Positions 250 to 50,070 are shown, counted from the first letter of the stretch. The stretch: DNA of 50,313 nucleotides from Gemmatimonadaceae bacterium (GCA_041743285.1 JBGTNB010000304.1:1-50313); one strand, 5' to 3'. The notes: generated by a model from the sequence alone, not told the origin. Numbers and translations: made by a program.

Positions 250-548
250 TCGCATGATTCTCGCGGCGCACGCCGTTTGAGGATTGCAACTGCTTTTTAC
301 CACGGAGGACACAGAGGACACAGAGGACAACAGAGTGAACGTCAGGAAGAACCTTGCAAAAGAGAACAACCATAGGACAATTGCGTTCACGCGCGAGTAG
401 CTAGGCACAGTGTTAATCACCTCCGTGACCTCTGTGTCCTCTGTGGTTAATTTGCTTTTCTTTCCTTTCACTATTCATTGTTTTCTTGTTCGTGTTGTCT
501 GCCCTCTTTCGCATTTCGGCCTTCGCATCTCGTATCTCGCATCTCGTA
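250..548. repeat. Hairpin element, uninterrupted copy: conserved 5-prime flank, 30-nt GAGGACACA-repeat arms, ~90-nt loop, ~60-nt conserved 3-prime flank, CGCATCT-type heptad tail
   Basis: Arms 299-328 (ACCACGGAGGACACAGAGGACACAGAGGAC) and 418-447 (CACCTCCGTGACCTCTGTGTCCTCTGTGGT) pair at about 25 of 30 positions. The segment aligns by eye at roughly 80-85 percent with 37296-37586 plus 39565-39633. Confidence 0.8.
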
Positions 549-576: not shown

Positions 577-1911
577 ATGCCCGTCTCCCGTCGAGATTTC
601 GTCCGTGATGCCGCGCTGTTTGGTGCCGGCATCACCATCGTTCCGCGCCACGTGCTCGGGCGTGGGTATCGCGCACCGAGCGACACGCTCAACATCGGTT
701 GCGTTGGCGTGGCAGGGATGGGCCGGCAAGATGTCAACGGTGTAAGCGGCGAAAATCTCGTTGCGCTGTGCGACGTCGACTGGCGCCATGCCGAGGGTAC
801 GTTTACCGCCTATCCAGGCCCCAAACGCTACAAGGATTATCGACAGATGCTCGAGCGTGAGTCGGGGATCGACGCGGTCACCGTTTCCACACCCGACCAC
901 ACGCACGGCGTGATCGCGATGGCGGCGCTGCAGGCGGGCAAGCACGTCTACTGCCAGAAGCCGCTTGCGCGCACGTTGTGGGAGGTTCGGGCTCTCGAGC
1001 GCGCGTCGTCGCAACGCCCGCGTCAGGCAACGCAGATGGGGAACCAGGGTCACGCCGGCGAAGGGACGAGGCAGATCCGCGAGTGGGTGGAAGCGGGCGC
1101 GATCGGCGCGGTGCGTGAGGTGCACTATTGGACCAATCGTCCTATCTGGCCGCAGGCGATTGACCGGCCGACCGATGCGCATAACGTGCCGAGTACGCTC
1201 GACTGGGCGCTCTGGCTAGGCCCGGCGCCGGACCGTCCATACCACCCGGCTTACGTGCCTTTTCGCTGGCGAGGATGGTGGGACTACGGAACCGGCGCGT
1301 TAGGGGACATCGCCTGCCATGCGATGGACGCGGCATTCTGGACGCTCGATCTCAAGTTTCCGACGCGTATCGAAGCGGAGTCGAGCCCGCTGTTCGCCGA
1401 AACGGCGCCGCGGACGTCGCGCATCACCTACGACTTCCCGGCGCGCGGATCGCGTGGGCCTATTACCGGCATCTGGCGCGATGGCGGACTCTCGCCGACT
1501 CGCCCGAGCGACGCGGATACGGCCACGTCGTGGCCGCCGCACGAGGATGGCGGCCAGCTCTGGATAGGCGACCGCGGCAAGCTGGTCGCCGGCATGTACG
1601 GTCAGAATCCACGGCTGGTCGACGCAGCGCGCGACAAGGAGTTGAAGGCGAGTCCGCCGCCGGTGAAATATCCGCGCGTGGAAAACGTCTATGCCGAGTG
1701 GATCGCTGCGTGCAAGGCGGGAACACAGCCGGGCTCCAGCTTCGCCGGCCATGCCGGCCCGCTCACCGAAATGGTGTTGCTGGGCAACCTCGCCGTCCGC
1801 GCCGCCCGGCCCATCGAGGTCGATCCGGAGACCGGTGCAGTGAAGACGGCGGGGATTCCGGAGACGTGGGTGAAGCCGGTGATGAAGGAAGGGTGGGGGA
1901 TGGCTGGGTGA
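577..1911 (+). CDS. Gfo/Idh/MocA family oxidoreductase with twin-arginine (Tat) signal
   Basis: 444-aa ORF. N-terminal SRRDFVRDAALFGAG Tat motif, then the Rossmann start NIGCVGVAGMG. Overall family-typical layout. Confidence 0.85.
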   Translation: MPVSRRDFVRDAALFGAGITIVPRHVLGRGYRAPSDTLNIGCVGVAGMGRQDVNGVSGENLVALCDVDWRHAEGTFTAYPGPKRYKDYRQMLERESGIDAVTVSTPDHTHGVIAMAALQAGKHVYCQKPLARTLWEVRALERASSQRPRQATQMGNQGHAGEGTRQIREWVEAGAIGAVREVHYWTNRPIWPQAIDRPTDAHNVPSTLDWALWLGPAPDRPYHPAYVPFRWRGWWDYGTGALGDIACHAMDAAFWTLDLKFPTRIEAESSPLFAETAPRTSRITYDFPARGSRGPITGIWRDGGLSPTRPSDADTATSWPPHEDGGQLWIGDRGKLVAGMYGQNPRLVDAARDKELKASPPPVKYPRVENVYAEWIAACKAGTQPGSSFAGHAGPLTEMVLLGNLAVRAARPIEVDPETGAVKTAGIPETWVKPVMKEGWGMAG

Positions 1912-1913
1912 TC

Positions 1914-2124
1914 GGGAATCGGGAATAAGGAATCGGGAATAGGAACCAGGAAATAGGAATTAGGAATTAGGAATTAGGAATTAGGGAAGGTACGCGGGCA
2001 GCCTTTCAGGCCGGCCGCATGGTTGTAAGAGATTGTCGGTCGGCGCTGTACTGCAAATTTCCCGATTCCATTCCCGATTCCCGATTCCCGATTCCCGATT
2101 CCCGCTTACCCTATTTCCTATTCC
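1914..2124. repeat. Inverted arrays of GGGAATC-type heptad repeats forming a long imperfect hairpin between convergent genes; probable bidirectional terminator
   Basis: Left array GGGAATC/GGGAATA/AGGAATC...GGAATTA x4 at 1914-1986. Right array CCCGATT x5 and relatives at 2058-2124. About 70 nt of unique loop lies between them. The arrays abut or overlap both stop codons (1909-1911 and 2111-2113). Confidence 0.75.
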
Positions 2125-3379
2125 ATCCCCACGTCCCCTTTGCCACCGCCGGGACGAACTTCTCCAGCTTCTTCGGCGGGTACTCGAGCGTCTTTCCCTC
2201 CTCCGCGCTCATGTAGGCGGTCATCAGCATCCTTACCACTTCCACGCCGTCGTCGAAGGTTAGGCGGGGCTCCTCCTTACCCAGGAAAACGCGGACGAAG
2301 TGACGGTCCTCGGCCTCGTAGCCGTAAGCGACCGGCTCGCTCGGTACGACCGGCATCACTCCCATCTCGGCGTTCTGTTTTTCGACGAGATCCTCGCCAG
2401 CCTTGCCGGTGACCTCGCGGCTGAAGAACACCTCCAGGCCACTGTCGAGCGAATTCCAGCGCATCGAGTACTCCGGGCCTAACACCTCGGCGGACAACCG
2501 AAGGCCGGCGCCGACGAAGCTCCACGAAGTCGTCGCCTCTCCGATCGCGACGCTTCCATCGGGACCCTCGAACTCGACGGTGAGAGCCGCAAAGTCCTCC
2601 GATGGCCGCTTGGTATAATCCACCTCCTTGCCCATGGTGTTTCGCAGCTGCTTGGCATAGGCGGGACGCGACCACTTGAGGCTCGCAATGTGACCGGTGA
2701 TGCGCACCGGCCGGAGCGTGGAAAGAGGTTCGCCGGGCGCGGTGAGCAGATGCCTCACGACCAGCGCCGAGTGGCACATCATGTCGTTGAGCACACCGCC
2801 ACCCTGAAGATCGCCTCGCCAGAACCATGGCGCGTGCGGGCCACTGTGCTCCTCGGCCGCGCGAGCAAGGTACGGGCGCCCGGCCAGTTTGGCGCCGCGC
2901 GCCCAAATCAACCGTTTGCCCTGCTCCACGTGCGGTGCGAACAGCTGGTTCTCCAGGTAGCCGTGCTTGAGCTCGACCTTCTTGACCATCTTCGTTACCG
3001 CCAGCGCCTCGGCGACCGTCCGCCCGAGCGGTTTCTCGCAGGCTACTCCGCGTAAGGCACCGGCGCGACCTACAGCGTCGACCATCTCCTCGATGTTGTC
3101 GATTCGGGCGTGATTCGGGCCGCAGATCCAGATTGCGTCTATGCCCGGGTCGGCCACCATAGCGGCGATCGACTTGAACGGCTTGGCCGGGCCGACGTCG
3201 AGCTTCCTGGCCATCGCCGCCGCGCTCTCCGCATTTTTCACAGTCGGCGAATAAATGCCGCGTACTTCCACGTCGCGCACGCCCACCAACGCCTGCAGGT
3301 GAAAGCGCGTGTTGAATCCGCTACCGATGAAGCCGATGCCGAGCATTTGAGTGAGGTGAGGGGTTAGGCCATGGACCAA
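2111..3379 (-). CDS. Gfo/Idh/MocA family oxidoreductase (cytoplasmic type)
   Basis: 422-aa ORF with N-terminal Rossmann motif LGIGFIGSGFNTRFH. The start may instead be the internal Met at 3346. The last codons (..WGWNRK) are encoded by the heptad array. Confidence 0.8.
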   Translation of the reverse strand: MVHGLTPHLTQMLGIGFIGSGFNTRFHLQALVGVRDVEVRGIYSPTVKNAESAAAMARKLDVGPAKPFKSIAAMVADPGIDAIWICGPNHARIDNIEEMVDAVGRAGALRGVACEKPLGRTVAEALAVTKMVKKVELKHGYLENQLFAPHVEQGKRLIWARGAKLAGRPYLARAAEEHSGPHAPWFWRGDLQGGGVLNDMMCHSALVVRHLLTAPGEPLSTLRPVRITGHIASLKWSRPAYAKQLRNTMGKEVDYTKRPSEDFAALTVEFEGPDGSVAIGEATTSWSFVGAGLRLSAEVLGPEYSMRWNSLDSGLEVFFSREVTGKAGEDLVEKQNAEMGVMPVVPSEPVAYGYEAEDRHFVRVFLGKEEPRLTFDDGVEVVRMLMTAYMSAEEGKTLEYPPKKLEKFVPAVAKGTWGWNRK

Positions 3380-3527
3380 GTGTCGTAAACAACGACCGGA
3401 GCAGCAGCAATTGCCGAAATATTCACAGGTGAGAGCGAATTTGGCGGATGAGACGGATTATTTCGTCTTCCACTCGCGATTCAGGCGGCGGCAACACGAA
3501 CCGGAATCGATCCACCCGTTCTGACCC

Positions 3528-4145: not shown

Positions 4146-5845
4146 AACGCGCCTGCCTTTCGCTGTTGGGTTATGTAATCACTCGTCCGCCAAGCCAGAG
4201 CCATGATCGTCCAGGTGGGATTCTTGTCGGCCTGCGAGACGAACGGCCCGCCGTCGGCGACGAGAACGTTCTTGCAATCGTGCGCTTGGCAATTCGCCGA
4301 TACGACGGATTTCGCGGGATCGGTCCCCATCCGCGTGCATCCAAGTTCGTGGATGATGCGCCCACCGGCGGCAATCCCGTAGCCTTGCTCCTTGGTGGGC
4401 ATTGGCGACCAGACTTCACCGCCCATGTCGGCGATCAGCGCGCGGAAGGTCTCCTGCATGTGCCGCACCTGATCGTACTCGTGATCGCTCCACTTCCAGC
4501 TGAAGCGCAGCACCGGAATACCGAACCGGTCGACCACCGTCGGATCGAGCTCGCAGTATGAATCAGCGTTAGGGATCATCTCGCCACGGCCGGAGAATCC
4601 GACGGTCGCTCCGTAGTAACGCCGATAATCGTTCTTGAGCTGCGCACCGTAGCCGCCGCCGGGCGGGTAGCGCTGAATTCCGCCCATGAAACCGTAGCTC
4701 GGTTGCCCGAGCCCGCCCCATACCTCGATGTGATAGCCGCGCGGAAAGTTCAGCGTCTTGTTGTCGAGCCACCACGGCATGTAGATGTGGGCTCCGCCAA
4801 CGCCCTGCTCGTTATGGGGAACGTGATCCATCATCGCCGGAATGAATCCGGCGACATCGGTGCCGGTGGTGTCGGTCAGGTACTTGCCGACCATTCCGCT
4901 GGAATTGCCGAGACCCTGCGGAAACCTGCTGCTCTTGCTGTTGAAAAGAATGCGCGCCGACTCGCATGCGCTGGCGGCAAGCACCACGACTCGTGCCTGG
5001 ATGTGCCTGTCTTCCCCGGTCGCCTTGTCTATGTAGTTGACGCCGGTCGCCAATCCGTTGGAGCCGACGGTCACTTCCCGCGCCATCGCATCGGTGTGAA
5101 TCGTAAGGCGGCCGGTCGCCAGCGCCGGAGTGAGAAGCACGCCGGGACTTGAGAAATTCGCGTTGACCTTGCAGCCACGGTAGCAGTCTCCGCAGTAGTG
5201 GCAGGCCGGCCGGCCATGCAGAGGCTTGGTCAGAATCGACAGCCGCGCCGGGATGCACTTCACCCCCAGCCGGTCGGCCGATCGCTTGACGAGCAGCTCG
5301 TAGCAGCGTGGACGCGGCGCGGGGAGGAACTTGCTATCCGGGTGGTTCCGCAGGTTCTCGCGGCTGCCGAAAATCCCCACCAGATCATCCACGCGATCGT
5401 AGTAAGGCGCCACGTCATCGTACGTTATCGGCCAGTTGTCGCCCAGACCATCGAGCGCTTGACCCTGAAAGTCGTCAGGCCCGAAACGCAGCGAGATGCG
5501 CCCCCAGTGATTGGTCCGCCCGCCGAGCATCCGGGCACGCCACCAATCGAACCGCGTTCCTGGTGCCCGCGTGTACGGCTCGCCTTCGATGTCCCATCCG
5601 CCGATGCAGGCATCGAATTCGCCGAACGGCCGTTCCCGGGTAGCGGCGCCGCGTCGGGGCGAGGCATAGTTCGGAACCAGCATCGCCGAATCGGTCGCGT
5701 TATCCCAAGGGCCGCCCGCTTCTAGCATAACGACATTGGCACCGGCCTGCGTGAGAGCGTACGCCGCGATGCCGCCGCCGGCGCCGGATCCGATGATGGC
5801 CACGTCGTACGTGGTGCGCTGGGATCTGAGAGGGAGAAGGGACAA
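4142..5845 (-). CDS. GMC family FAD-dependent oxidoreductase (large subunit)
   Basis: 567-aa ORF with FAD fold YDVAIIGSGAGGGIAAYAL and a GMC C-terminal region (GCTRMGTDP..). The only in-frame start upstream of the FAD motif is TTG at 5845. Confidence 0.85.
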   Translation of the reverse strand: MSLLPLRSQRTTYDVAIIGSGAGGGIAAYALTQAGANVVMLEAGGPWDNATDSAMLVPNYASPRRGAATRERPFGEFDACIGGWDIEGEPYTRAPGTRFDWWRARMLGGRTNHWGRISLRFGPDDFQGQALDGLGDNWPITYDDVAPYYDRVDDLVGIFGSRENLRNHPDSKFLPAPRPRCYELLVKRSADRLGVKCIPARLSILTKPLHGRPACHYCGDCYRGCKVNANFSSPGVLLTPALATGRLTIHTDAMAREVTVGSNGLATGVNYIDKATGEDRHIQARVVVLAASACESARILFNSKSSRFPQGLGNSSGMVGKYLTDTTGTDVAGFIPAMMDHVPHNEQGVGGAHIYMPWWLDNKTLNFPRGYHIEVWGGLGQPSYGFMGGIQRYPPGGGYGAQLKNDYRRYYGATVGFSGRGEMIPNADSYCELDPTVVDRFGIPVLRFSWKWSDHEYDQVRHMQETFRALIADMGGEVWSPMPTKEQGYGIAAGGRIIHELGCTRMGTDPAKSVVSANCQAHDCKNVLVADGGPFVSQADKNPTWTIMALAWRTSDYITQQRKAGAL

Positions 5846-5864
5846 TTTGGGGGTTGGGGGTTGA

Positions 5865-6069
5865 GGGTCGCGGGGGGTCAGGGGTCAGGGGTCAGGGGTC
5901 AGGGGTCAGGGGCTAGGGGTCAGGGGTACGAACCAAAGGTTCGAGATTATAGGACAGTGAATCATCCGGCCCAGGATGTCAAAAGGCGAGCGTCAATTCC
6001 TAACCGACGAATTCTCGACCGACCCTCCGACCCCCGACCCTCCGACCCTCGACCCTAGACCCTCGACCC
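5865..6069. repeat. Inverted arrays of GGGGTCA-type heptads (long hairpin) with a ~90-nt loop
   Basis: Left arm 5865-5928 (GGGGTCA x5 plus variants). Right arm 6016-6069 (CGACCCT/CGACCCC variants, the complement class). The loop contains ATAGGACA at 5949-5956, as do the loops at 371-378 and ~37516. Confidence 0.75.
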
Positions 6070-6075
6070 GGCATC

Positions 6076-6104
6076 ATTATACCGCAGGGGGGCGGCCTTG
6101 GCGA
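6076..6104 (-). promoter_or_regulatory. Candidate sigma-70 promoter reading toward the hairpin and the GMC operon
   Basis: On the minus strand: TCGCCA (6104-6099), 17-nt spacer, perfect TATAAT (6081-6076). This would place the whole hairpin in the 5-prime leader of 4142-5845. Confidence 0.25.
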
Positions 6105-6120: not shown

Positions 6121-7911
6121 ATGACTGCACGACGCGCTTCGTCGGCTCTATGCAGGTACGGGCTCGTGTTGAGCCTGGTGGCGGTTTCGTCGCCGGCGGC
6201 GACTGACGCCCAGGAGGGCGCGGCCGCGCGCCTCCGGGCGGTCATGGCCGCGGAGTGGGAGTTCGAACTGCGCGAGAGCCCGCTCCTGGCCACGAGCGTA
6301 GGTGACCGGCGCTATGACGATCGCCTGCCGCACGTATCGCCAGCCGATTATGCGCGGCGCCGCGATACTCTGCAGGCGTATATGCGACAGCTCGCTTCGA
6401 TCGACCGGAGCCCGCTCGATGCCGCCGACCGAGTGAGCGCGGCGATGCTAGAGGAGCGTTTGCGCATTGCGCTCGGAGAGATCGAGGGTGGCGAGGAGCG
6501 AATCCCCATTCTTGCCGATGCGGGTTTCCATATAGGGCTGGCCCGGCTGCCGTCCTATCAACCGCGGCAGACCATTCCCGAGGTGGAGAGATATCTCGCG
6601 CGGTTGCATGACGTGCCGCGCTACTTTCGCGAGCACATCGCCAATATGCGACGTGGAATGCGCGACGGGTTCACAATGCCTCGCGTGGTTCTGGACGGCT
6701 ACGAGGTGACCATCGCCTCCCACGTGGTGTCGGATCCCGATAGCAGTCTATTCTTCGAGCCCCTCACCAAGCTGCCCGCACAGATTCCGGAGGCCGAGCG
6801 CTCGCGGCTCCAGGAAGAAGCGCGAACGGTCATCCGGGACAGTGTCGTCAACGCCTATCGAGAGTTCCTGACGTTCATGACGCGGGAATACATTCCGGCG
6901 ACCCGCACCACGACGGCGGCGCACGACCTGCCGGGCGGTGAGGCGCATTACCTGCGGCAGATACTCAAGTACACGACTCTCCCGCTCACCGCAGACTCGA
7001 TCCACGTCATCGGGCTCTCGGAAGTGGCGCGCATCGAGAGCGAAATGGCCGAAGTCATGCGCCGTGTGAACTTCACCGGTACACTGGCGGAGTTCATCCG
7101 AATGCTGCGGAGCGAACCACGGTTCTATGCGAAAACGCCTGACGAACTGCTGGAGCGCGCCTCGTGGATCGCCAAGCGGATGGATGGCAAGCTGCCATCG
7201 CTGTTCCGGACGCTGCCGCGGCAGCCGTACGGCGTGGAGCCGGTGCCGGCTCACCTGGCACCCAAGTACACGGCCGGACGCTACGTCGAGGCGCCGCCGG
7301 GCAGTCTGGAGTCGGGCACGTACTGGGTGAACACCTACAATCTTCCGAGCCGTCCTTTTTATACGCTGGAGGCGTTGACGCTGCACGAAGCCGTTCCCGG
7401 GCACCATCTCCAGGTCGCCCTTTCGCGTGAGCTCGGGGAGCTGCCCGAATTCCGGCGCAATACGTATATCTCGGCCTTCGGTGAGGGGTGGGGCCTGTAC
7501 GCCGAGCGGCTTGGGCTGGAGGCGGGGTTCTATACCGATCCATACAGCGACTTCGGGCGCCTGACGTTCGAAATGTGGCGTGCCTGCCGGCTGGTGATCG
7601 ATACCGGGTTGCATACGAAGGGTTGGACTCGGCAGCAGGCGATGGAATATCTGGGATCGCGTACTGCGCTATCGCTTCACGAAGTCGGGACGGAGACCGA
7701 CCGGTACATCTCGTGGCCAGGGCAGGCGCTGGCGTACAAACTCGGCGAGCTGACAATCCGGGGACTGCGAGATGAAGCGGAGGAGGCACTCGGCAGCCGC
7801 TTCGACATCCGGGAATTCCATCACGTCGTCCTGCGCAACGGCTCGATACCGTTGCCTGTGCTCGAGGCCGAGGTTCGTACGTGGATCGCGGAAATGAGGC
7901 AGCGGTCGTGA
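6121..7911 (+). CDS. DUF885 domain-containing protein (secreted)
   Basis: 596-aa ORF with an N-terminal signal-like segment and the HEAVPGHHLQ motif typical of DUF885. Confidence 0.8.
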   Translation: MTARRASSALCRYGLVLSLVAVSSPAATDAQEGAAARLRAVMAAEWEFELRESPLLATSVGDRRYDDRLPHVSPADYARRRDTLQAYMRQLASIDRSPLDAADRVSAAMLEERLRIALGEIEGGEERIPILADAGFHIGLARLPSYQPRQTIPEVERYLARLHDVPRYFREHIANMRRGMRDGFTMPRVVLDGYEVTIASHVVSDPDSSLFFEPLTKLPAQIPEAERSRLQEEARTVIRDSVVNAYREFLTFMTREYIPATRTTTAAHDLPGGEAHYLRQILKYTTLPLTADSIHVIGLSEVARIESEMAEVMRRVNFTGTLAEFIRMLRSEPRFYAKTPDELLERASWIAKRMDGKLPSLFRTLPRQPYGVEPVPAHLAPKYTAGRYVEAPPGSLESGTYWVNTYNLPSRPFYTLEALTLHEAVPGHHLQVALSRELGELPEFRRNTYISAFGEGWGLYAERLGLEAGFYTDPYSDFGRLTFEMWRACRLVIDTGLHTKGWTRQQAMEYLGSRTALSLHEVGTETDRYISWPGQALAYKLGELTIRGLRDEAEEALGSRFDIREFHHVVLRNGSIPLPVLEAEVRTWIAEMRQRS

Positions 7912-7985
7912 TTGCTGTCCCCGAACCGCAGATCGCGCATCATGCCGGTGGGCCACTGTATAAATGGCGGCGATTCACTGATAGC

Positions 7986-8460
7986 GTTATGATAACCGCA
8001 GGAACCACAGATTTCGCAGATTTCGCAGATCCCGCAGCACAAGCTGTAGTTGGCGATCTGCGTAATCGGCGTAATCTGTTGGTTGCTTTTGTTTGCAGTT
8101 TCCTGGAGCGAGACCAACTCGTGTCGGCGGGACGGACAACCTTTTTCGTTTGCGGTTAGGCAAACCGCAGGAACCGCAGATTACCAGATTTCGCATGCCG
8201 CGAGCAAACTGTAGTTGGCAATCTGCGTAATCGGCGCAATCTGCGGTTGTTTTCTCTTGCAGTTCCTCCAGCAGCGAGTCCAACTCGAGTCGGCGGGATG
8301 ACCAACCGACATCATTTGCGGTTATGAAAGAACGACAGGAACCGCAGATTACGCAGATGTCGCAGATGCCGCGAACAAACTGGCGGTGACGTTCTGCGTA
8401 ATCGGTGTTGTCGGCGTTTGTTGCCGCCGGCATCCCGAGTCATCTGCGGAATCCCCGTTT
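7986..8460. repeat. Tandem array of ~2.7 copies of a 166-169-nt unit, each unit a hairpin with CGCAGAT-type repeat arms
   Basis: Units start at 7986, 8155 and 8321 (GTTATGA/GTTAGGC/GTTATGA..AACCGCAGGAACCGCAGATT..). In each unit AACCGCAGATT.. pairs with ..AATCTGCGGTT. Confidence 0.8.
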
Positions 8461-8891
8461 TATCGCTTATTGGAGTCGCCGCGCGGTGTGCCCGTCAGCT
8501 GCACCAGCACCAGCTCATTACCATACAGATCGGCGATGTGAGCTGATACTGCGCCGCTGTCCTCCACTGGTGCCCTGCGAATCTGCACGCCACGCCGAGA
8601 CAGTTCCTCGGCGGTCGCTCGGCAATCGGCGGTGTAAACAACGAACAGTGGATGACTGCCTGCCTGACGACCTACCAGACCGAGGTCATCGCCCGTCGCC
8701 CGCAGCATCCAGAGCCCGACCGGCGGTGTTCCTCCCTGTCCGGCGACGCCGATGTGCAGAAAACGCTGGCCGGTCGACGCGGTCTGATCGTACAGCACGA
8801 CGAAACCGAGGGCGTCCCGGTAGAAGGCGAGCGCCTCATCGTAATCCCGCACGAGGAGCACGGTCCGCCCTAACGCCTTGAGCAATGCCAC
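8460..8891 (-). CDS. VOC (glyoxalase/bleomycin resistance/dioxygenase) family protein
   Basis: 143-aa ORF with the family-typical N-terminus LLVRDYDEALAFYRDALGF. Confidence 0.7.
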   Translation of the reverse strand: MALLKALGRTVLLVRDYDEALAFYRDALGFVVLYDQTASTGQRFLHIGVAGQGGTPPVGLWMLRATGDDLGLVGRQAGSHPLFVVYTADCRATAEELSRRGVQIRRAPVEDSGAVSAHIADLYGNELVLVQLTGTPRGDSNKR

Positions 8892-13386: not shown

Positions 13387-13477
13387 ATCGCAACTGGTGG
13401 ACCGAAGTTGATGCTCGGTTCCGGACGCGGGATGCGCGACGAGGGACGCGGGACGCGCGACGCGGGACGCGGGAGGG
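13387..13477. repeat. Scaffold-like motif (ATCGCAACTGGTGGACC) followed by a GGGACGC-type heptad array; single arm
   Basis: 13387-13403 resembles ATTGCAACTGCTTTTTACC of the elements at 283 and 37323. Heptads GGGATGC GCGACGA GGGACGC GGGACGC GCGACGC GGGACGC GGGAGGG span 13423-13477. Only a degenerate complementary arm lies downstream. Confidence 0.6.
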
Positions 13478-29489: not shown

Positions 29490-29595
29490 CTGCCAGATCA
29501 GCCCTTTCCGGGCTGACACCTGGAATGGATTGCCCTCGTACGGTAGGGGTCAGCGGCCCGCACAGTGCCATTTTCCTGCCCTATCATCCGGTCCT

Positions 29596-30699
29596 ATGCC
29601 GAGCTTTATCACGCGCCGTACGGTTCTTCTGACGGGTGTTTGGATCTGCCTGCCGTTGGCAAGTCCCGCCGCGTCGAATGCGCAACCTCCCGTCGCCATC
29701 GGCGACGCGCCCCGGGTCAACGGGCTGCGGATCAATTTTCGCGATCGCCGGCTCGAAGAGGTAAACGGTGTCAACCTAACGATTTGGTCCCCCCACCGGC
29801 CGGTTCGCGGCGAGGTCAACGGCTTGGCCATCGGGCTTCCGATGACCGGAGCGGCGCGGATCGATGGTATTGGCGTGGGTCTGTTCGGCGTGGGCGCCGA
29901 CGAGAGGTTCAGGGGCATAGGAATCGGCGGCGTTGGTGTAGGAGCCGGCGAATCGGCAACCGGCGTAATGCTCGGCACAGTGGGTGTCGGGAGCGGCGGT
30001 TCGGTACGCGGGTTGGCGATAGGCGGAGTAGGAGTAGGGGCAGGGGGTGATCTTCGCGGCATAATGATCGGAGGGATCGGCGCCGGAACGGGAGGGCGTG
30101 CGGAAGGGCTGATCATCGGTGGAATCGGAGCGGGCGCCGGTGGCGGTGTGCGAGGAATCTCGCTGGGTGGGATCGGCGTCGGATCCGGGGGGGACGTGAC
30201 GGGCATTTCGGTGGGTGGAATCGGAGTCGGGGCGGGCGGCCGGTTGCGCGGCCTTTCGATAGGCGGAATAGGAGTCGGCGCTGGCGAGGGGATGGCGGGG
30301 ATTACGATTGCCGGAATTGGCGCGGGCGGCGGTGGCGACGTGACCGGCCTGACGATTGCCGGCATCGGGGTGGGGTCGGGCGGGACGGTCAGGTGGGTAA
30401 CTCTCGCCGGCGTGGGAATCGGCGCGCCGAGGATCGAGGGATTGGCGATCGCTCCGGCCGTGGGCGGACGTGAGGTGAGCGCGCTGGCGATCGCCCCGGC
30501 ATTCTTTCGTATAGATGACCTGGGAATGCAGAGGGGAGCGGTGCTGTCGGCCGTGAGCTACATCGAGGGCACGCAGGGCGGGCTGACGATTGGCATCGTC
30601 AATTACACCCGTGTACTGGAGGGGGTGCAGATAGGGCTGATAAATATTGCCCGCGAAAACCCTCGCGGACGGAGAGTCCTGCCTATCGTGAACTGGTAG
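29596..30699 (+). CDS. Secreted glycine-rich repeat protein (about 12 tandem 16-residue units G-h-x-I-G-G-I-G-V-G-A-G-G-x-h-R)
   Basis: Signal peptide MPSFITRRTVLLTGVWICLPLASPAASNA, 48-nt periodic repeats at roughly 29820-30500, and a C-terminal GVQIGLINIARENPRGRRVLPIVNW module. Confidence 0.65.
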   Translation: MPSFITRRTVLLTGVWICLPLASPAASNAQPPVAIGDAPRVNGLRINFRDRRLEEVNGVNLTIWSPHRPVRGEVNGLAIGLPMTGAARIDGIGVGLFGVGADERFRGIGIGGVGVGAGESATGVMLGTVGVGSGGSVRGLAIGGVGVGAGGDLRGIMIGGIGAGTGGRAEGLIIGGIGAGAGGGVRGISLGGIGVGSGGDVTGISVGGIGVGAGGRLRGLSIGGIGVGAGEGMAGITIAGIGAGGGGDVTGLTIAGIGVGSGGTVRWVTLAGVGIGAPRIEGLAIAPAVGGREVSALAIAPAFFRIDDLGMQRGAVLSAVSYIEGTQGGLTIGIVNYTRVLEGVQIGLINIARENPRGRRVLPIVNW

Positions 30700-37278: not shown

Positions 37279-37586
37279 TTGCTGTCGGTCGTTCGCGATT
37301 CTGGCGGCGTGCGACATTCGAGGATTGCAACTGCTTTTCTACCGCGGAGGGCGCGGAGGCGCGCAGAGGGCTGCCGAGGAACTAGTGCGAGGGGGTACGA
37401 CCCGTGAGGCGTCAGGGTTTCTCTGCGTGTTTTTTTCACCACGGAGGACACAGAGGGCACAGAGGACAACAGAAAAATGAACATCAGGAAGAAACTTGCA
37501 AAACGGATACAACAATAGGACAGCTTCGTTCACGCGTGTGTAGCTAGGCACAGAATTAATCACCTCTGTGTCCTCTGTGTCCTCTG

Positions 37587-39564
37587 GTGCGTCAGGCCAA
37601 GCCTGACTGCTCTTGTGAAATGAAAGGAGTTCACCATGTGAAATGCCTATGACACATGTAGCAGCGCAGGCGGCGTTGCCGAGCAATCGGCGGGTCGAAG
37701 CCCTGCAATGCGAAGCGGTGAGCCGTAACGCGAGTGAACTCTCGTAGGCCTCGAAACACTAAGATGGAAGCGGCCAGCCCGCCAGAGAGGGTGAAGCCAG
37801 AACAGGCGATGGGAACATAGGCGAACAGTTGCCTGGCTTCCCGGGGTAAAGAGAGACGGCGCGTCGCGAGAGAGAAGTCGAGGAACCTGAGAGACCCGGC
37901 GTGCTTGGGGTCGTACCTCTGCAGGTGAGGATCGGAATGCATAACGGTTCGCGCTGCACGGCCGGGAGTCGGAGGGGGAGGTAGTAGCGGGGAAGCGTCG
38001 TAACGGACGTGGAGCGAAGCTCCCCTGCCGACAGAATGCGGAGTCAGAAACGTGGAGAGCCGATTGCGGAGAAAACCCGCCACGACGGAAGAATCGATGC
38101 CAGTGCAAATGCCCAAGGCCTTCGTGGTCAACGGCAAGCGCCTGCCCGTGAACCTCTTCACGCTGAGACAGAAGCTCTACGAGAAAGCGAAGCGAGAGCC
38201 GACGTTCCGGTTTTACACGCTGTATGGCCTGATCGCTCGGCTCGACGTGCTTGAGGCAGCTTGGGTCCTGGTCGCCGATAACGGCGGCGCGCCAGGGGTG
38301 GATGGGGTCACGATCGAGGAGATTGAGGCCACACCCAGCGGAGTGACAACACTGGTGGCGACATTGCGTCAGGAGTTGCTCACGAAGCAGTACAAGCCAC
38401 AGGCGGTGCGCCGGGTATTCATCCTTAAGGACAATGGCAAACGACGGCCGCTCGGAATCCCGACGGTTCGGGACCGAGTGGTGCAGGCGGCGGCTCGCCT
38501 CATCCTGGAACCGATCTTTGAAGCGGACTTCCTGGATGCGTCGTATGGCTATCGTCCGGGTCGAAAGGCCCACGAGGCGCTCGCCGCGATCGAGCGCAAC
38601 GTGAAGGAGGGATACGCGGAGATTTACGATGCAGACCTGCAAGCCTATTTCGACACGATCCCGCACGACAAACTGTTGCAGTGTGTCGAGCGGCGGGTGG
38701 CAGACCGATCGGTGCTGCGCCTGCTCCGTCAGTGGCTGGAAGCGCTGGTGGAGGATCGTGACGAGAACGGACGGCCGAAGCGGAGCCGCCCGACCCAAGG
38801 GATCGGGACGCCACAGGGCGGAGTGATTTCCCCCCTGTTGGCGAATCTGTACCTGCACTGGTTCGATGTGAGGTTTCATCGGCAGCACGGTCCAGGCACG
38901 TGGGCGAAAGCCCGGCTGGTCCGCTACGCCGACGACTTCGTGATCATGGCGAAGTACATCGGGGATCGAATACCGGCGTGGGTGGAGGCAACGACCGAAG
39001 GGTGGCTTGGCCTTACGATCAATCGCGAGAAGACCCGGATCGTGCGGCTCGGACCGGAACACGGAGAGGGAACGGAGCGACTCGACTTTCTCGGCTACAC
39101 GTTTCGGTATGACTGGGATCGCTATGGGCGAGGGACGCGCTACTTCACGGCGGTTCCCTCGGCCAAAGCGCTCGCTCGGATGCAAGACGAACTACGGGCA
39201 CTGATCAGCAGTCGGCAGAACTACACACCGATACCGCACCTGATCAAGCGTGTGAATCGCAAGCTCCGAGGCTGGCAGAACTACTTCAGCTTTGGCCATC
39301 CGCGAGGTGCCTACCGAGTGATGAATGCCTTCGTAATCGCTAGACTGACGCGCCACCTACAACGTCGGAGTCAACGCCCCTGCTGTCCGCCGGCAGACAT
39401 GTCGTGGTATGGCTTCATCACCGGTCAACTGGGATTGCAGCCGCTCACGATGCGTGCAGCTCCTCGATAGTGCTCTTGTGAATCTGTCGGGAAAGCCGGA
39501 TGCGGGAAATCCGCCAGTCCGGTTTGACGAGGGGGACCTAACTTCGGTTAGGTCCCTACTCTAC
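37587..39564 (+). mobile_element. Complete group II intron (1978 nt), endonuclease-less, class C-like by insertion behaviour
   Basis: GTGCG at 37587-37591. Domain V-like AAGCCGGATGCGGGAAATCCGCCAGTCCGGTTT at 39493-39525 (AGC triad, GAAA loop). Domain VI-like GGGACCTAAC-TTCG-GTTAGGTCCC at 39533-39556, with an unpaired A at 39558, 7th nt from the 3-prime end (..CTAC at 39564). Removing the segment restores the sequence seen at 438-449. Confidence 0.85.
38052..39470 (+). CDS. Group II intron reverse transcriptase/maturase (no HNH endonuclease domain)
   Basis: RPLGIPTVRDRVVQ, YADDFVIM (YxDD) and the maturase X region RGWQNYFSFG. The C-terminus has no CxxC/HNH. An alternative ATG lies at 38097. 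Confidence 0.9.
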   Translation: MESRLRRKPATTEESMPVQMPKAFVVNGKRLPVNLFTLRQKLYEKAKREPTFRFYTLYGLIARLDVLEAAWVLVADNGGAPGVDGVTIEEIEATPSGVTTLVATLRQELLTKQYKPQAVRRVFILKDNGKRRPLGIPTVRDRVVQAAARLILEPIFEADFLDASYGYRPGRKAHEALAAIERNVKEGYAEIYDADLQAYFDTIPHDKLLQCVERRVADRSVLRLLRQWLEALVEDRDENGRPKRSRPTQGIGTPQGGVISPLLANLYLHWFDVRFHRQHGPGTWAKARLVRYADDFVIMAKYIGDRIPAWVEATTEGWLGLTINREKTRIVRLGPEHGEGTERLDFLGYTFRYDWDRYGRGTRYFTAVPSAKALARMQDELRALISSRQNYTPIPHLIKRVNRKLRGWQNYFSFGHPRGAYRVMNAFVIARLTRHLQRRSQRPCCPPADMSWYGFITGQLGLQPLTMRAAPR

Positions 39565-39780
39565 TGGTCAATTCGTTTTGCTTCCTTTCCCTGTTCATTG
39601 TCTTTCTCGTCCGTCGTCGTCTCCCCGCTCCTGCCCTCTGCGCTCCTCTGCGCACCCTGCGGTGAAGATTGCGGAGACTGGGCTGCAGCGAATCGAGTTC
39701 GGCGGTATCCAGACACAGTTAGACAGGCAGATTGATGGCCGGTTGGCCTTGACGGCCCGTCCGTTCGTCTGAAATGCAAT

Positions 39781-40691: not shown

Positions 40692-41600
40692 ATGACCGAA
40701 ATCCTGACTTGGCCGGCGCTTCCGTACGATGAATGGCGCGAGAGCCATGAAACGCTGCACATGTGGACACAGATCGTAGGCAAGATCCGGCTGGCCAAGG
40801 CGCCGCCGTTGAACCACTGGTGGCACACCACGCTCAGCATAACGCCGCGCGGACTTGCCACGTCGGCGATTCCCCACGGGACGCGGAGCTTCGAGATCAC
40901 ATTTGATTTCATCGATCACGTCTTGCTGATCGAGGTGAGCGACGGCGCCGAGCGAAGAATTCAACTGGCGCCCCGCACCACTGCCGACTTTTACTTCGAA
41001 GTAATGGCACGTCTCGACGAACTGGGGATTCCCGTGACAGTCTGGCCTCGTCCGGTGGAGGTAGAAACTCCTATACGGTTCGATGAGGACCATGTGCATC
41101 AGTCGTATGATTCAGCCCAGGTCGAGCGGTTCCACGCTGCCCTCGTTCAAGCGGACCGAGCGCTGCAGCGCTTTCGCGGCCAGTTCATTGGAAAGTCGAG
41201 CCCCGTTCACTTCTTTTGGGGTGCATTCGACGTAGCGCTCACCCGATTTTCCGGCCGGCGGGCACCGGAGCATCCAGGGGGCGCTCCAAACGTGGGCCGC
41301 CATGTGATGGTCGAGGCCTACTCGCACGAAGTCGCGAGCTTTGGCTGGTGGCCGGGAAGTGCCGCGTATCCGGAGCCCGCCTTCTATGCTTACGCGTATC
41401 CGGAGCCGGCAGGCTTCAGTAGAGCGAAGGTAAGACCGGTTGCGGCGCAGTACCTTCAGGCTTTGGGTGAGTTCGTGCTTCCGTATGAGGCCGTACGTCT
41501 CGCCCCCGATCCGGACGCGGCAGTACTGACATTCTGTTCAGACGTGTACGAGGCAGCTGCCGATCTGGGAATGTGGAATCGTCAGGCGCTGGAACGGTGA
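40692..41600 (+). CDS. DUF5996-like protein
   Basis: N-terminus WPALPYDEWRESHETLHMWTQIVGKIRL matches my memory of DUF5996. The 302-aa ORF is intact. Confidence 0.5.
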   Translation: MTEILTWPALPYDEWRESHETLHMWTQIVGKIRLAKAPPLNHWWHTTLSITPRGLATSAIPHGTRSFEITFDFIDHVLLIEVSDGAERRIQLAPRTTADFYFEVMARLDELGIPVTVWPRPVEVETPIRFDEDHVHQSYDSAQVERFHAALVQADRALQRFRGQFIGKSSPVHFFWGAFDVALTRFSGRRAPEHPGGAPNVGRHVMVEAYSHEVASFGWWPGSAAYPEPAFYAYAYPEPAGFSRAKVRPVAAQYLQALGEFVLPYEAVRLAPDPDAAVLTFCSDVYEAAADLGMWNRQALER

Positions 41601-41867
41601 CCCGGCACCGCTAGCCTTTCGAACTCGAGCGACGGCAAGGCCGTCAAGGATCTGGTGGCATGCTTTGCAGCATCGGGAAGAATGCGGCGCGTCGAGCACG
41701 CTTCGCCTCGATCATCGTCGGCGTCGCCATAGGCGGGTGCGCGACGACGACCGGAGCTCCGCCGGCCGACGCCTCGCCTGACGATCCGCCGGCTCTTTCC
41801 GCGATTTCACAGGAGGATCTGCGCCGGGACCTGTTCGTGCTAGCCAGTCAGGCAATGCGTGGCCGCG
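41263..41867 (+). repeat. Direct repeat A (605 nt): 3-prime part of the DUF5996 gene, the intergenic region, and the first 208 nt of the M28 gene
   Basis: Aligns colinearly with 45649-46252, with roughly 25 substitutions and one 1-nt indel counted by eye. Confidence 0.85.
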
Positions 41868-45189: not shown

Positions 45190-45648
45190 CGTGGGCACTA
45201 GCTGGGATCCCACCGTTCCCGAAGACCCCTTCTCATCTTCTGACCCGATTCCGACCACGATGTCCCGCACAACTTTCATGGATGGCGGGCGTCTCGCGGG
45301 GTCTCTTTCAATCGCGGTGAATCACGCCTCGCGAGTGCGCGACCTCCAGCGCCTCGGCGATCTGACGAGCGATTGCGAGTGCTTCGGACAGCGGTAGCCG
45401 GCCCCGTGTCAGCGGCTGGGCGAGCGTTTCTCCTTCGACCAGCTCATGCACGAGAAAGTGGAGACCGTCAGCTTCCTCGAGGCGATAGATCGCTTCGATG
45501 TGCGGATGGTTGAGCGAGGCCAGAGCGAGCGCCGCTCTTTTCAGACGACACATGAGAGTCATGTCCTTTGCGACATTCGGTGGGACGAGCTTGATAGCGA
45601 CGTCGCGCTTGAGCCGCTGGTCGCAGGCCCGGTAGATGCTGCCGATTC
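45190..45648 (-). pseudogene. Ser/Thr protein kinase remnant (truncated at both ends, frameshifted)
   Basis: GGIGSIYRA..RDVAIKLV..LNHPHIEAIY..LVHELVEGETL..AHSRGVIHRD, then a stop. Downstream kinase-like pieces (MKVVRD..GTVGSQ) continue in other frames. The 5-prime end is cut within the G-loop at the repeat B junction. Confidence 0.7.
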
Positions 45649-45986
45649 CACCGGAGCATCCAGGGGGCGCTCCAAACGTGGGCCGCCATGTGATGGTCGA
45701 GGCCTACTCGCATGAAGTCGCGAGCTTTGGCTGGTGGCCGGGAAGTGCCGCGTATCCGGAGCCCGCCTTCTATGCTTACGCGTATCCGGAACCGGCAGGC
45801 TTCAATCGAGTGAGGGTAAGACCAGTTGCGGCGCAGTACCTTCAGGCTTTGGGTGAGTTCGTGCTTCCGTATGAGGCCGTACGTCTCGCCCTCGATCCTG
45901 ACGCGGCAGTACTGACATTCTGTTCAGACGTGTACGAGGCAGCTGCCGATCTGGGAATGTGGAATCGTCAGGCGCTGGAACGCTAA
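45649..45986 (+). pseudogene. 3-prime fragment of a second DUF5996 gene copy
   Basis: Encodes PEHPGGAPNVGRHVMVEAYSHEVASFGWWPG...NRQALER, matching residues ~191-302 of 40692-41600. There is no upstream coding continuity. Confidence 0.8.
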
Positions 45987-46252
45987 CCCGGTATTTCTGC
46001 CTTTCGAACTCGAGCGACGGCAAGGCCGTCAAGGATCTGGTGGCATGCTATGCAGCGTCGGGAAGAATGCGGCACGTCGAGCACGCTTCGCCTCGATCAT
46101 CGCCGGCGTCGCCATAAGCGGGTGCGCGACGACGACCGGAGCTCCGCCGGCCGACGCCTCGCCTGACGATCCGCCGGCTCTTTCCGCGATTTCACAGGAG
46201 GATCTGCGCCGAGACCTGTTCGTGCTAGCCAGTCAGGCAATGCGTGGCCGCG
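45649..46252 (+). repeat. Direct repeat B (604 nt), partner of 41263-41867
   Basis: See repeat A. This copy continues into the intact M28 gene. Confidence 0.85.
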
Positions 46253-50007: not shown

Positions 50008-50016
50008 GCAAACAGC

Positions 50017-50070
50017 GGGAAACGGGAAATGGGAAAGGGGAAACGGGCTGGAAACGGGAAACGGGAAACG
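50017..50070. repeat. GGGAAAC heptad array, unpaired within the window
   Basis: GGGAAAC GGGAAAT GGGAAAG GGGAAAC GGGCTGG AAAC GGGAAAC GGGAAAC G starts 10 nt after the stop at 50007. Confidence 0.7.

Follow-up and report, generated by a model that had tools for sequence, protein, structure and literature searches.

The window analysed here is a whole metagenomic contig of 50,313 nt with a G+C content of 62-63%, whose proteins have their closest relatives in the Gemmatimonadaceae according to protein comparison. The 548-nt spacer between its convergent DUF885 and glyoxalase-family genes is occupied by a tandem array of hairpin-forming units. Tandem Repeats Finder describes this array by a period of 166, 2.5 copies and 81% matches (7986-8405), and alignment extends it with a decayed third copy up to 8459. 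There are three units of ~167 nt each, two good and one decayed, with a pairwise identity of 79-86%. The array has a G+C content of 53.7%, compared to 63% for the contig. The features of the window are listed in Table 1.

Each unit consists of an arm of the 9-nt repeat CGCAGATNN, followed by a complementary arm (NNATCTGCG). Together they form a long, imperfect and interrupted hairpin with a stem of 24-32 bp, a loop of 10-25 nt and an energy of -38 to -50 kcal/mol per unit. This layout of arm, loop, arm and linker occurs three times, the loops and linkers being conserved between the units. Compared to shuffled sequences, the folding of the whole array is exceptional on both strands (z = -6.3 for the minus strand and -7.5 for the plus strand), so the self-complementarity of the simple-repeat arms, which a first-pass annotation of this DNA had pointed out, is beyond chance. 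The best hairpin of the array is that of unit 3 (z = -5.6/-6.0; -50.5 kcal/mol with z -5.6 on the plus strand), in which 28 of the 32 arm positions are Watson-Crick pairs. Units 2 and 1 fold more weakly and are eroded (z = -1.6 to -3.2; -2.5/-3.2 for unit 2). Within the array, an arm pairs with its own partner no better than with an arm of another unit, and for the 5′ arm of unit 1 the 3′ arms of units 3 and 2 are better partners than the 3′ arm of the same unit. Unit-by-unit co-evolution of the arms was thus not seen in the array.

Table 1. Features of the window, in order of position
Feature	Position	Strand	Description
Element A	256..506	+	Part-paralogue of element B; nonamer hairpin 296-450 (CACAGAGGA) and T-rich tail 446-475
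Heptamer hairpin (GGGAATC)n(GGAATTA)n ... (GATTCCC)n	1906..2124	.	Between convergent GFO genes; overlaps both stop codons
Heptamer hairpin (GGGGTCA)n ... (CGACCCT)n	5847..6069	.	Divergent GMC/DUF885 spacer
DUF885 gene	6121..7911	+	Stop codon 88 nt upstream of the first hairpin
Array unit 3	7982..8151	+	Nearest DUF885; best-preserved hairpin, T-rich tail and linker (repeat finding, alignment, folding)
Unit 3, 5′ arm	8000..8040	+	Nonamers CACAGATTT CGCAGATTT CGCAGATCC
Unit 3, 3′ arm	8052..8088	+	GATCTGCG TAATCGGCG TAATCTGTTGG
Unit 3, T-rich tail	8081..8104	+	GGTTGCTTTTGTTTGCAGTTTCCT; minus-strand complement AGGAAACTGCAAACAAAAGCAACC is the scaffold of the first-pass annotation; 7/12 T, flagged terminator-like
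Array unit 2	8152..8319	+	Arms 8168-8200 and 8216-8251, tail 8245-8267, then linker
Array unit 1	8320..8459	+	Nearest the glyoxalase gene; decayed; sole unit with a recognisable L001 counterpart (E=0.012)
Glyoxalase-family gene	8460..8891	-	Convergent with DUF885; stop codon abuts unit 1
(GGACGCG)n tract	13423..13474	+	Single-armed, no complementary partner; 'fourth scaffold hit' of the first-pass annotation
Element B, 5′ part	37297..37586	+	Carries the type I 'scaffold', the outer 5′ arm (CGCGGAGGG)n and an inner hairpin (37440-37586)
Group II intron (GTGCG...CTAC)	37587..39564	+	RT/maturase ORF 38052-39470; Rfam D1-D4 and D5-D6 matches
Element B, 3′ part	39565..39668	+	T-rich tail, then outer 3′ arm (CCTCTGCGC)n
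(CGGGAAA)8 tract	50016..50070	+	Single-armed; 9 nt past a stop codon

At the orthologous site in related contigs (numbered here with the prefix L), the array differs in extent. The closest of these, L013 (96% identity of the DUF885 protein), has at least two units, one of which is the ortholog of unit 2 with an identity of 93%. Compared to the window, L013 shows 9-nt indels in one of the arms as well as in a linker, and those in the arm support slippage. A spacer of 189 nt with one decayed unit is found in L001 (91%, DUF885). In L002, L088 and L090 (82-84%; based on DUF885 for L002 and on GFO1 for L088 and L090), the spacer is wholly absent, and in L014 (81%, DUF885) the glyoxalase gene is missing and 13 nt separate DUF885 from the next gene. 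The single decayed unit in L001 and the lack of a spacer in the others indicate that the array grew in place and that it is dispensable.

The array might itself encode a product. The region is strongly structured, as would suit small RNAs, and a 148-aa open reading frame (ORF) on the minus strand (7987-8433) spans it entirely. In L013, however, this ORF is split into pieces of 40 and 47 aa, which marks it as spurious, and the protein-coding reading was rejected. Moreover, Rfam contains no family that matches the array at the gathering threshold or, beyond generic hairpin noise, at E<=1, and no promoter-like site was found. A gene product of the array is thus extremely unlikely.

The turnover of such hairpins is seen at the convergent GFO spacer of the window (1906-2111). 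Here, a hairpin is present in nine out of ten related genomes, with differing sequences. The exception is L088, which has no significant hairpin (z 0.44). In L090 the hairpin is a plain GC hairpin of 15 bp that contains no repeats, and in L089 a stem of 15 bp holds two CGGGAAA units (z -6.1). L003 has a ~62-bp CGGGAAA:TTTCCCG stem with the same outer flank as L089 (-120.5 kcal/mol, z -16). The stems are built from GGGAAAC in L002, from GGGGCCA:TGGCCCC in L087 and from GGGAATC:GATTCCC in the window. L091-L093, which come from three samples and show 95% protein identity to the window, carry GGAAATA:TAATTCC (z -5.6), and the core of the loop enclosed by this stem is near-identical to that of the window. 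The proposal of the first-pass annotation that position and loop are kept with the arms swapped as complementary pairs is thus borne out at this orthologous spacer. We infer that it is the hairpin, rather than a particular sequence, that is under selection here.

The window hairpin at this spacer is composed of blocks, with (GGGAATC)4(GGAATTA)5 in the 5′ arm and (GATTCCC)5 and then what remains of the GGAAATA complement in the 3′ arm. The presence of both block types suggests that two alternative helices coexisted, of which the relatives kept different ones. Since fold-back copying of a whole arm would give a mirrored block order, independent slippage of the arms combined with selection for at least one good helix is favoured. 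The change from GGGAATC to AGGAATT involves two transitions and is passable via G-U intermediates. The idea that both arms are written from one template does not fit well with this non-mirrored order, nor with the array arms, which show no preference for their own partner.

Alternatively, the hairpins might be functionless by-products of repeat expansion in loose spacers, in which template switching at the replication fork makes and repairs the inverted partner. Template switching is indeed documented for hairpins (PMC8794818), and a heptamer bias has been attributed to polymerase slippage (PMC4679880, PMC4692102). The fast turnover, with arms and entire arrays lost between close relatives, and the frequent occurrence of single-armed tracts are in line with such neutrality. 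The retention of a hairpin at one orthologous position in nine of the ten genomes is not, as the sequence has changed completely and one of the hairpins is not even a repeat. In addition, the T-rich tails of the hairpins are non-random, and the non-mirrored block order is not expected of a fold-back copy. A neutral by-product is therefore considered rather unlikely.

Besides the array, the first-pass annotation named other hairpins, which do exist. They belong to elements A (256-506) and B (37297-39668), paralogues that are 86-95% identical in blocks. The repeat arms at 37341 and 39634 make up the pair of a single element, B, which a group II intron splits in the window. This is revealed by comparison with L006, a Gemmatimonadaceae metagenome-assembled genome in which the orthologous site is empty of intron. 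The insertion site, between CCTCTG and TGGTCAAT, coincides with the 3′ base of B's inner hairpin, ahead of the T-rich tail. The reverse transcriptase (RT) of the intron has the RVT_1 and GIIM (maturase) domains only. Its closest solved structures are group IIC RTs (7uim, 3e-50; 6ar1, 2e-48), compared to 8e-36 for IIB, and the intron is accordingly classified as group IIC-like, by RT comparison rather than by ribozyme structure. Introns of group IIC are typically found downstream of terminator motifs or of inverted repeats of other kinds (PMC1702495). Hairpin B alone shows this target-site arrangement, with an intron directly 3′ of the stem-loop and an RT of the IIC type that has no endonuclease domain. 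The position of the intron at the 3′ base of hairpin B lends independent support to a stem-loop or terminator-like nature of the element.

Element A starts ~110 nt past the stop codon of an ISL3-family transposase, the C-terminal end of which forms the start of the contig (1-141; PF01610, E 7e-9). An 8-bp direct repeat, TTTCGCAT, at 248-255 and 507-514 exactly brackets the element. This repeat sits in a tract of TCGCATN heptamers, and it could be a target duplication or a chance occurrence.

These elements raise the question whether the hairpins are selfish, i.e., REP/BIME-like (repetitive extragenic palindrome/bacterial interspersed mosaic element) or MITE-like (miniature inverted-repeat transposable element) palindromes that spread between intergenic sites, perhaps by means of a hairpin-recognising transposase, the array having no role of its own. 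Element A, which copies part of B, is missing from the orthologous spacers of L002, L003 and L088 and is flanked by the 8-bp repeat; B contains a hairpin within a hairpin, and the threefold arm-loop-arm-linker layout of the array is BIME-like. Furthermore, copies with the same frame occur at non-orthologous sites. L028, a distant contig with a G+C content of 68%, has three REP-like hairpin copies right after stop codons (3316-3500, 4885-5040 and 5520-5710). Their frame is AAGAGTTTGGCC-(CGCRGAGR)3...GGGCYAATYTCT, with 8-nt arms of the type of the outer arm of element B. Similarly, L001 (1030-1322) and L003 (9758-9905) contain long hairpins with GGCGGATNN nonamer arms and the outer stem CAATGNCGAAGGAT at non-orthologous sites, which suggests dispersal of a framed palindrome. 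The copy number, however, is very low. The 19-mer GAGGATTGCAACTGCTTTT from the frame of A and B has nine matches in 185,579 species genomes, eight of which are due to chance; the single real one is the ortholog of B, which does not point to a dispersed family with the A/B frame. The profile of the array unit, searched against 120 kb of related DNA, matches no locus but its own. There is neither a GTAG-type 5′ tetranucleotide nor a terminal inverted repeat beyond the arms, the repeat that flanks A may be due to chance, and the orthologous sites show gradual growth in place, from L089 to L003, instead of insertion. Altogether, a selfish origin is unlikely.

In the first-pass annotation, these hairpins were thought to share a conserved scaffold, visible on the minus strand, with unrelated arms. 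The quoted 24/25-mers are indeed present in the array's minus strand, at 8104-8081 and 8269-8245. The 3′ ending GGTT..TTTGC that was described for each unit is found after unit 2 and not after the other units. The likeness of the array to the sites at 279-301 and 37320-37343 has a local-alignment score of only 6-7, which is equalled by 5-31% of random 30-nt windows of the contig, and the supposed fourth copy at 13387 is at chance level as well (5-63%). The GGACGCG tract of the latter lacks a complementary partner nearby. A pattern derived from the array alone matches only the array when searched in the window, other window pattern searches matched the array plus A and B, and an nhmmer profile of five array units gives no match in A or B. 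Instead of four independent copies, there are only two independent events, as the array units are tandem duplicates and A and B are paralogues. The arms are not unrelated either, since all arm units of 8-9 nt carry the core GCRGA (CGCAGATNN, CACAGAGGA, CGCGGAGGG, GGCGGATNN).

The scaffold is not a family signature, but is composed of the stem base, an outer helix and the complement of the tail. ACC/GGTT are the base pairs that close the stem at its end, AGGAA/TTCCT forms an outer, second helix, and the A-rich 24-mer of the minus strand is the complement of the T-rich tail GGTTGCTTTTGTTTGCAGTTTCC on the plus strand. This tail resembles the tail of hairpin A (GGTTAATTTGCTTTTCTTTCC), a score that 0.05% of windows equal, and the array frame matches an A-rich stretch within the loop of A (340-371) with a score of 16, the best in the window. 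In a larger null of 630 kb of sequence on both strands, chance scores reach 16-17. The likeness is therefore read as shared tail composition and not homology, being suggestive at most. Other nonamer hairpins have other flanks, i.e., CAATGNCGAAGGAT in L001 and L003 and AAGAGTTTGGCC in L028; framed hairpin families exist, yet each of them has its own frame.

Some further candidates were set aside. Readings of the frame as a sigma-54 or a Bacteroidetes-type promoter were rejected by inspection because of mismatches with the consensus. The attC-like core GTTAGGC/GCCTAAC occurs in one linker only, at about chance level, is not conserved in the other units and was likewise rejected by inspection. 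Lastly, a sponge for a CsrA-type protein that recognizes GGA was set aside as the GGA motifs, which many of the units contain, are buried in stems.

Many intergenic tracts of 7- or 9-nt repeats are present on the contig, eight of which form complementary pairs. Unpaired tracts are located at 523, 13423, 14384, 25541 and 50016. Related contigs show a similar repeat-hairpin habit. In L006, for example, the position orthologous to the tract at 50016 is taken by a compact (GGGAATC)3 hairpin (7205-7275). The array can be regarded as one local case of a habit of this lineage, in which hairpins at gene boundaries are made from simple repeats of 7-9 nt.

As to the role of the array, several features are shared with intrinsic transcription terminators: a stable stem-loop lies near a stop codon, and a T-rich tract follows the stem on the sense strand. 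The plus-strand tails have seven T residues out of twelve in units 3 and 2 and in element B, and eight in element A and in the L006 ortholog of B. By comparison, 0.3% of all 12-nt windows reach seven T residues and 0.08% reach eight. The sole terminator-like site that a simple scan flags near the array is a sub-hairpin consisting of the 3′ arm and the tail of unit 3. Sister repeat tracts begin 0-22 nt past stop codons. The mismatches that would be compatible with G-U pairing in hairpins after plus-strand genes are in favour of the gene-sense strand by 15 to 5, a weak hint of action at the RNA level. On balance, it is somewhat probable that the array is a set of putative transcription terminators or 3′-end RNA hairpins, serving chiefly DUF885 and to a lesser degree the glyoxalase gene, that evolved by slippage under selection for pairing and was duplicated in tandem.

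A number of observations weigh against this role. The minus-strand tails of the array are weaker and only moderately T-rich (6/18 to 10/22 T), and the copies on which the G-U count is based are non-independent. Canonical intrinsic terminators have a stem of about 5-14 bp and a loop of 3-8 nt. The array has no such short stems and small loops, and the hairpin class in general, with stems of 24-64 bp and loops of 10-100 nt, is far beyond the canonical range. A simple terminator scan shows no enrichment on the contig (9 found versus 13 expected). Divergent promoter spacers (that at 5847-6069 and its orthologs) contain similar hairpins, which are unable to terminate either neighbour there, and the tracts at 13423, 14384 and 50016 are single-armed. 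Lastly, the array is dispensable, as the relatives with no spacer or with the 13-nt spacer of L014 illustrate.

The hairpins may have evolved as follows. The starting point would be an ordinary short terminator hairpin, one arm of which contains a unit prone to repetition and the other arm the complement of this unit. Replication slippage would then lengthen or shorten each arm separately, by which the arms would remain complementary at the level of the unit. Slippage turnover would also carry variants through an arm, and selection for pairing would retain or match them, partly via G-U intermediates. Entire hairpin units would finally be duplicated in tandem.

An effect at the DNA level has to be considered as well. 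A cruciform, a G-quadruplex, an i-motif or a periodic protein-binding array could regulate the neighbouring genes or replication, and the presence of hairpins in divergent promoter spacers and the GCRGA core common to all 8-9-nt arm units would suit such a structure. G-rich heptamers of the GGGANNN type from Xanthomonas form quadruplexes in vitro (PMC4692102), but G-runs are lacking in the array nonamers, the analysis identified no candidate for a binding protein, and the G-U bias and the T-rich tails point to RNA. A DNA-level function of the array is for these reasons very unlikely.

A more far-reaching hypothesis is that the hairpins at gene boundaries in the Gemmatimonadaceae are the work of a dedicated or strongly biased process, which would draw on a small genome-wide set of 7-9-nt units and exchange the unit in the two arms at once. 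Instead of being passive products of slippage, the stems would form a regulatory layer open to rapid rewriting, and the exact reuse of GGGAATC in two unrelated phyla, i.e., in Xanthomonas and here, would reflect a shared mechanism. Candidates for such a process may be ectopic conversion among the tracts of a shared pool, template switching from one arm to the other or a protein able to read the periodic stem. The hypothesis is speculative, and we consider it improbable.

Should the array indeed consist of terminators shaped by slippage, then terminator-like hairpins can evolve by repeat slippage with position and fold kept and the sequence replaced within less than 5% protein divergence. They would also offer a natural system to study the upkeep of stem pairing during fast turnover, the preference for 7- and 9-nt units and the targeting of structures by group IIC introns. 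In practice, the hairpins break metagenome assemblies and produce long spurious ORFs. The ends of contigs L013, L014 and L091-L093, which are short-read assemblies from independent samples, fall inside repeat tracts, and the recurrence of such ends in independent contigs indicates that the tracts break assemblies.

Several other observations were made in the window and its relatives. At the site after the Omp85-like gene, the window has the (CGGGAAA)8 tract with ~75 extra nt in comparison with the compact hairpin of L006. In L003, the gene of a gluconate 2-dehydrogenase subunit has a (TCGGGAA)13 ... (CCGATTC)5 hairpin (7791-7953) within its N-terminus as called, so that there is either a miscalled start or a hairpin within an operon. 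Upstream of GFO1 in L087 (8800-9000), (GGGAATC)3 ... (CCCGAT)8(TTCCCGA)6 reaches the start codon, and this mixed arm of 6- and 7-nt units occupies the place of element A in the window. A conserved box (CATTATAC / CAATTATA / CAATAATAC) is found ~40-50 nt upstream of the DUF885 start, at 6070-6085 in the window and in all relatives compared (L001, L002, L003, L014, L022, L088 and L090). It lies just downstream of the variable hairpin in the divergent spacer and is a likely -10 promoter element. A scan of metagenomes with the DUF885 protein yielded mainly distant loci that serve as background only, except for L028, L027, L015 and L022. Elsewhere in the window, a segmental duplication of ~600 nt with 97-98% identity (41263-41867 and 45649-46252, 4.4 kb apart) covers the 3′ part of a DUF5996 gene, of which 45636-45986 is a truncated second copy. 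Finally, a repeat with a 48-nt period (30118-30286; 3.5 copies, 69% matches) is present in an ORF that has no Pfam match (29530-30699) and that probably encodes a repetitive protein.

Among known systems, intrinsic terminators, including the bidirectional ones between convergent genes, resemble the array in having a stem-loop past the stop codon with a T-rich tail on the sense side and an A-rich stretch on the other. Terminators in tandem are known as well, and motifs of this kind serve as targets for group IIC introns (PMC1702495). They differ from the hairpins described here in that the latter have far longer stems, made of simple repeats, and larger loops, and in that a terminator role is putative here.

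The REP and BIME elements of enterobacteria and pseudomonads are extragenic palindromes at the 3′ ends of genes. They form clusters of alternating orientation with conserved short and long linkers and are insertion targets of mobile elements. The hairpins described here are similarly palindromes at 3′ ends, with clustered units, conserved linkers and a mobile-element insertion, and the threefold array shows the alternating orientation of a BIME. In contrast, their arms are tandem repeats rather than unique palindromes, and no high-copy dispersed family is in evidence in the 50 kb available of the source genome. The GTAG/GTGG head of REP sequences was not found on the array arms, and no REP-associated tyrosine transposase (RAYT) is in evidence on the 50-kb contig. 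The array does not resemble a MITE, since it is not flanked by a duplication and the single decayed unit of L001 indicates growth in place, nor a CRISPR array, since its loops and linkers themselves repeat between units.

Lineage-specific 7-nt intergenic tandem repeats are also known from the short tandemly repeated repetitive (STRR) sequences of cyanobacteria, which are heptamers, and from the Beggiatoaceae, where TAACTGA is in excess and only one inverted pair has been reported in the genome (PMC4679880). Those repeats are mostly single direct arrays, unlike the pairs described here, and inverted pairs are few among the STRR repeats of Nostoc (PMC4692102). For the writing of one arm from the other, as the first-pass annotation had proposed, a mechanism is known in template switching, which creates and maintains hairpins (Monttinen and Loytynoja, 2022, PMC8794818). 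It is neither needed nor favoured here, with block order non-mirrored and no unit-by-unit covariation of the array arms, and may at most account for single events.

The closest known case is that of the GGGAATC heptamers of Xanthomonas, 89-93% of which are intergenic and which tend strongly to be placed at the upstream stop codon or over it (Rehm et al., 2015, PMC4692102). Each genome contains 70-75 inverted GGGAATC pairs, and transcripts often begin or end at the repeats. Their length and sequence vary between close species, with retention of the single or paired type (PMC4692102). As in Xanthomonas, the array consists of convergent complementary tracts within a few hundred nucleotides that are intergenic, capable of forming a stem-loop, next to the upstream stop codon and variable in length among relatives, and the unit GGGAATC is identical to that of the hairpin at 1906-2111. 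This hairpin also has the quadruplex-capable heptamer type GGGANTN, whereas the array has a 9-nt unit (CGCAGATNN) that is unable to form a G-quadruplex. Other differences are the tandem triplication of entire hairpin units and the switch of the paired unit at one orthologous site, which was seen here and is not described in Xanthomonas. The phylum is a different one as well, namely Gemmatimonadota, and the repertoire of units comprises GGGAATC, GGGAAAC, GGAATTA, AGGAACT, GGGGTCA, GGGGCCA, CGCAGATNN, CACAGAGGA and CGCGGAGGG. The first-pass annotation could assign the array to no described class. The inverted heptamer pairs near stop codons in Xanthomonas contradict this, and the layout is terminator-like and BIME-like as well. 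Rather than a new class of elements, the present hairpins carry the Xanthomonas phenomenon into another phylum, in which the set of units is richer.

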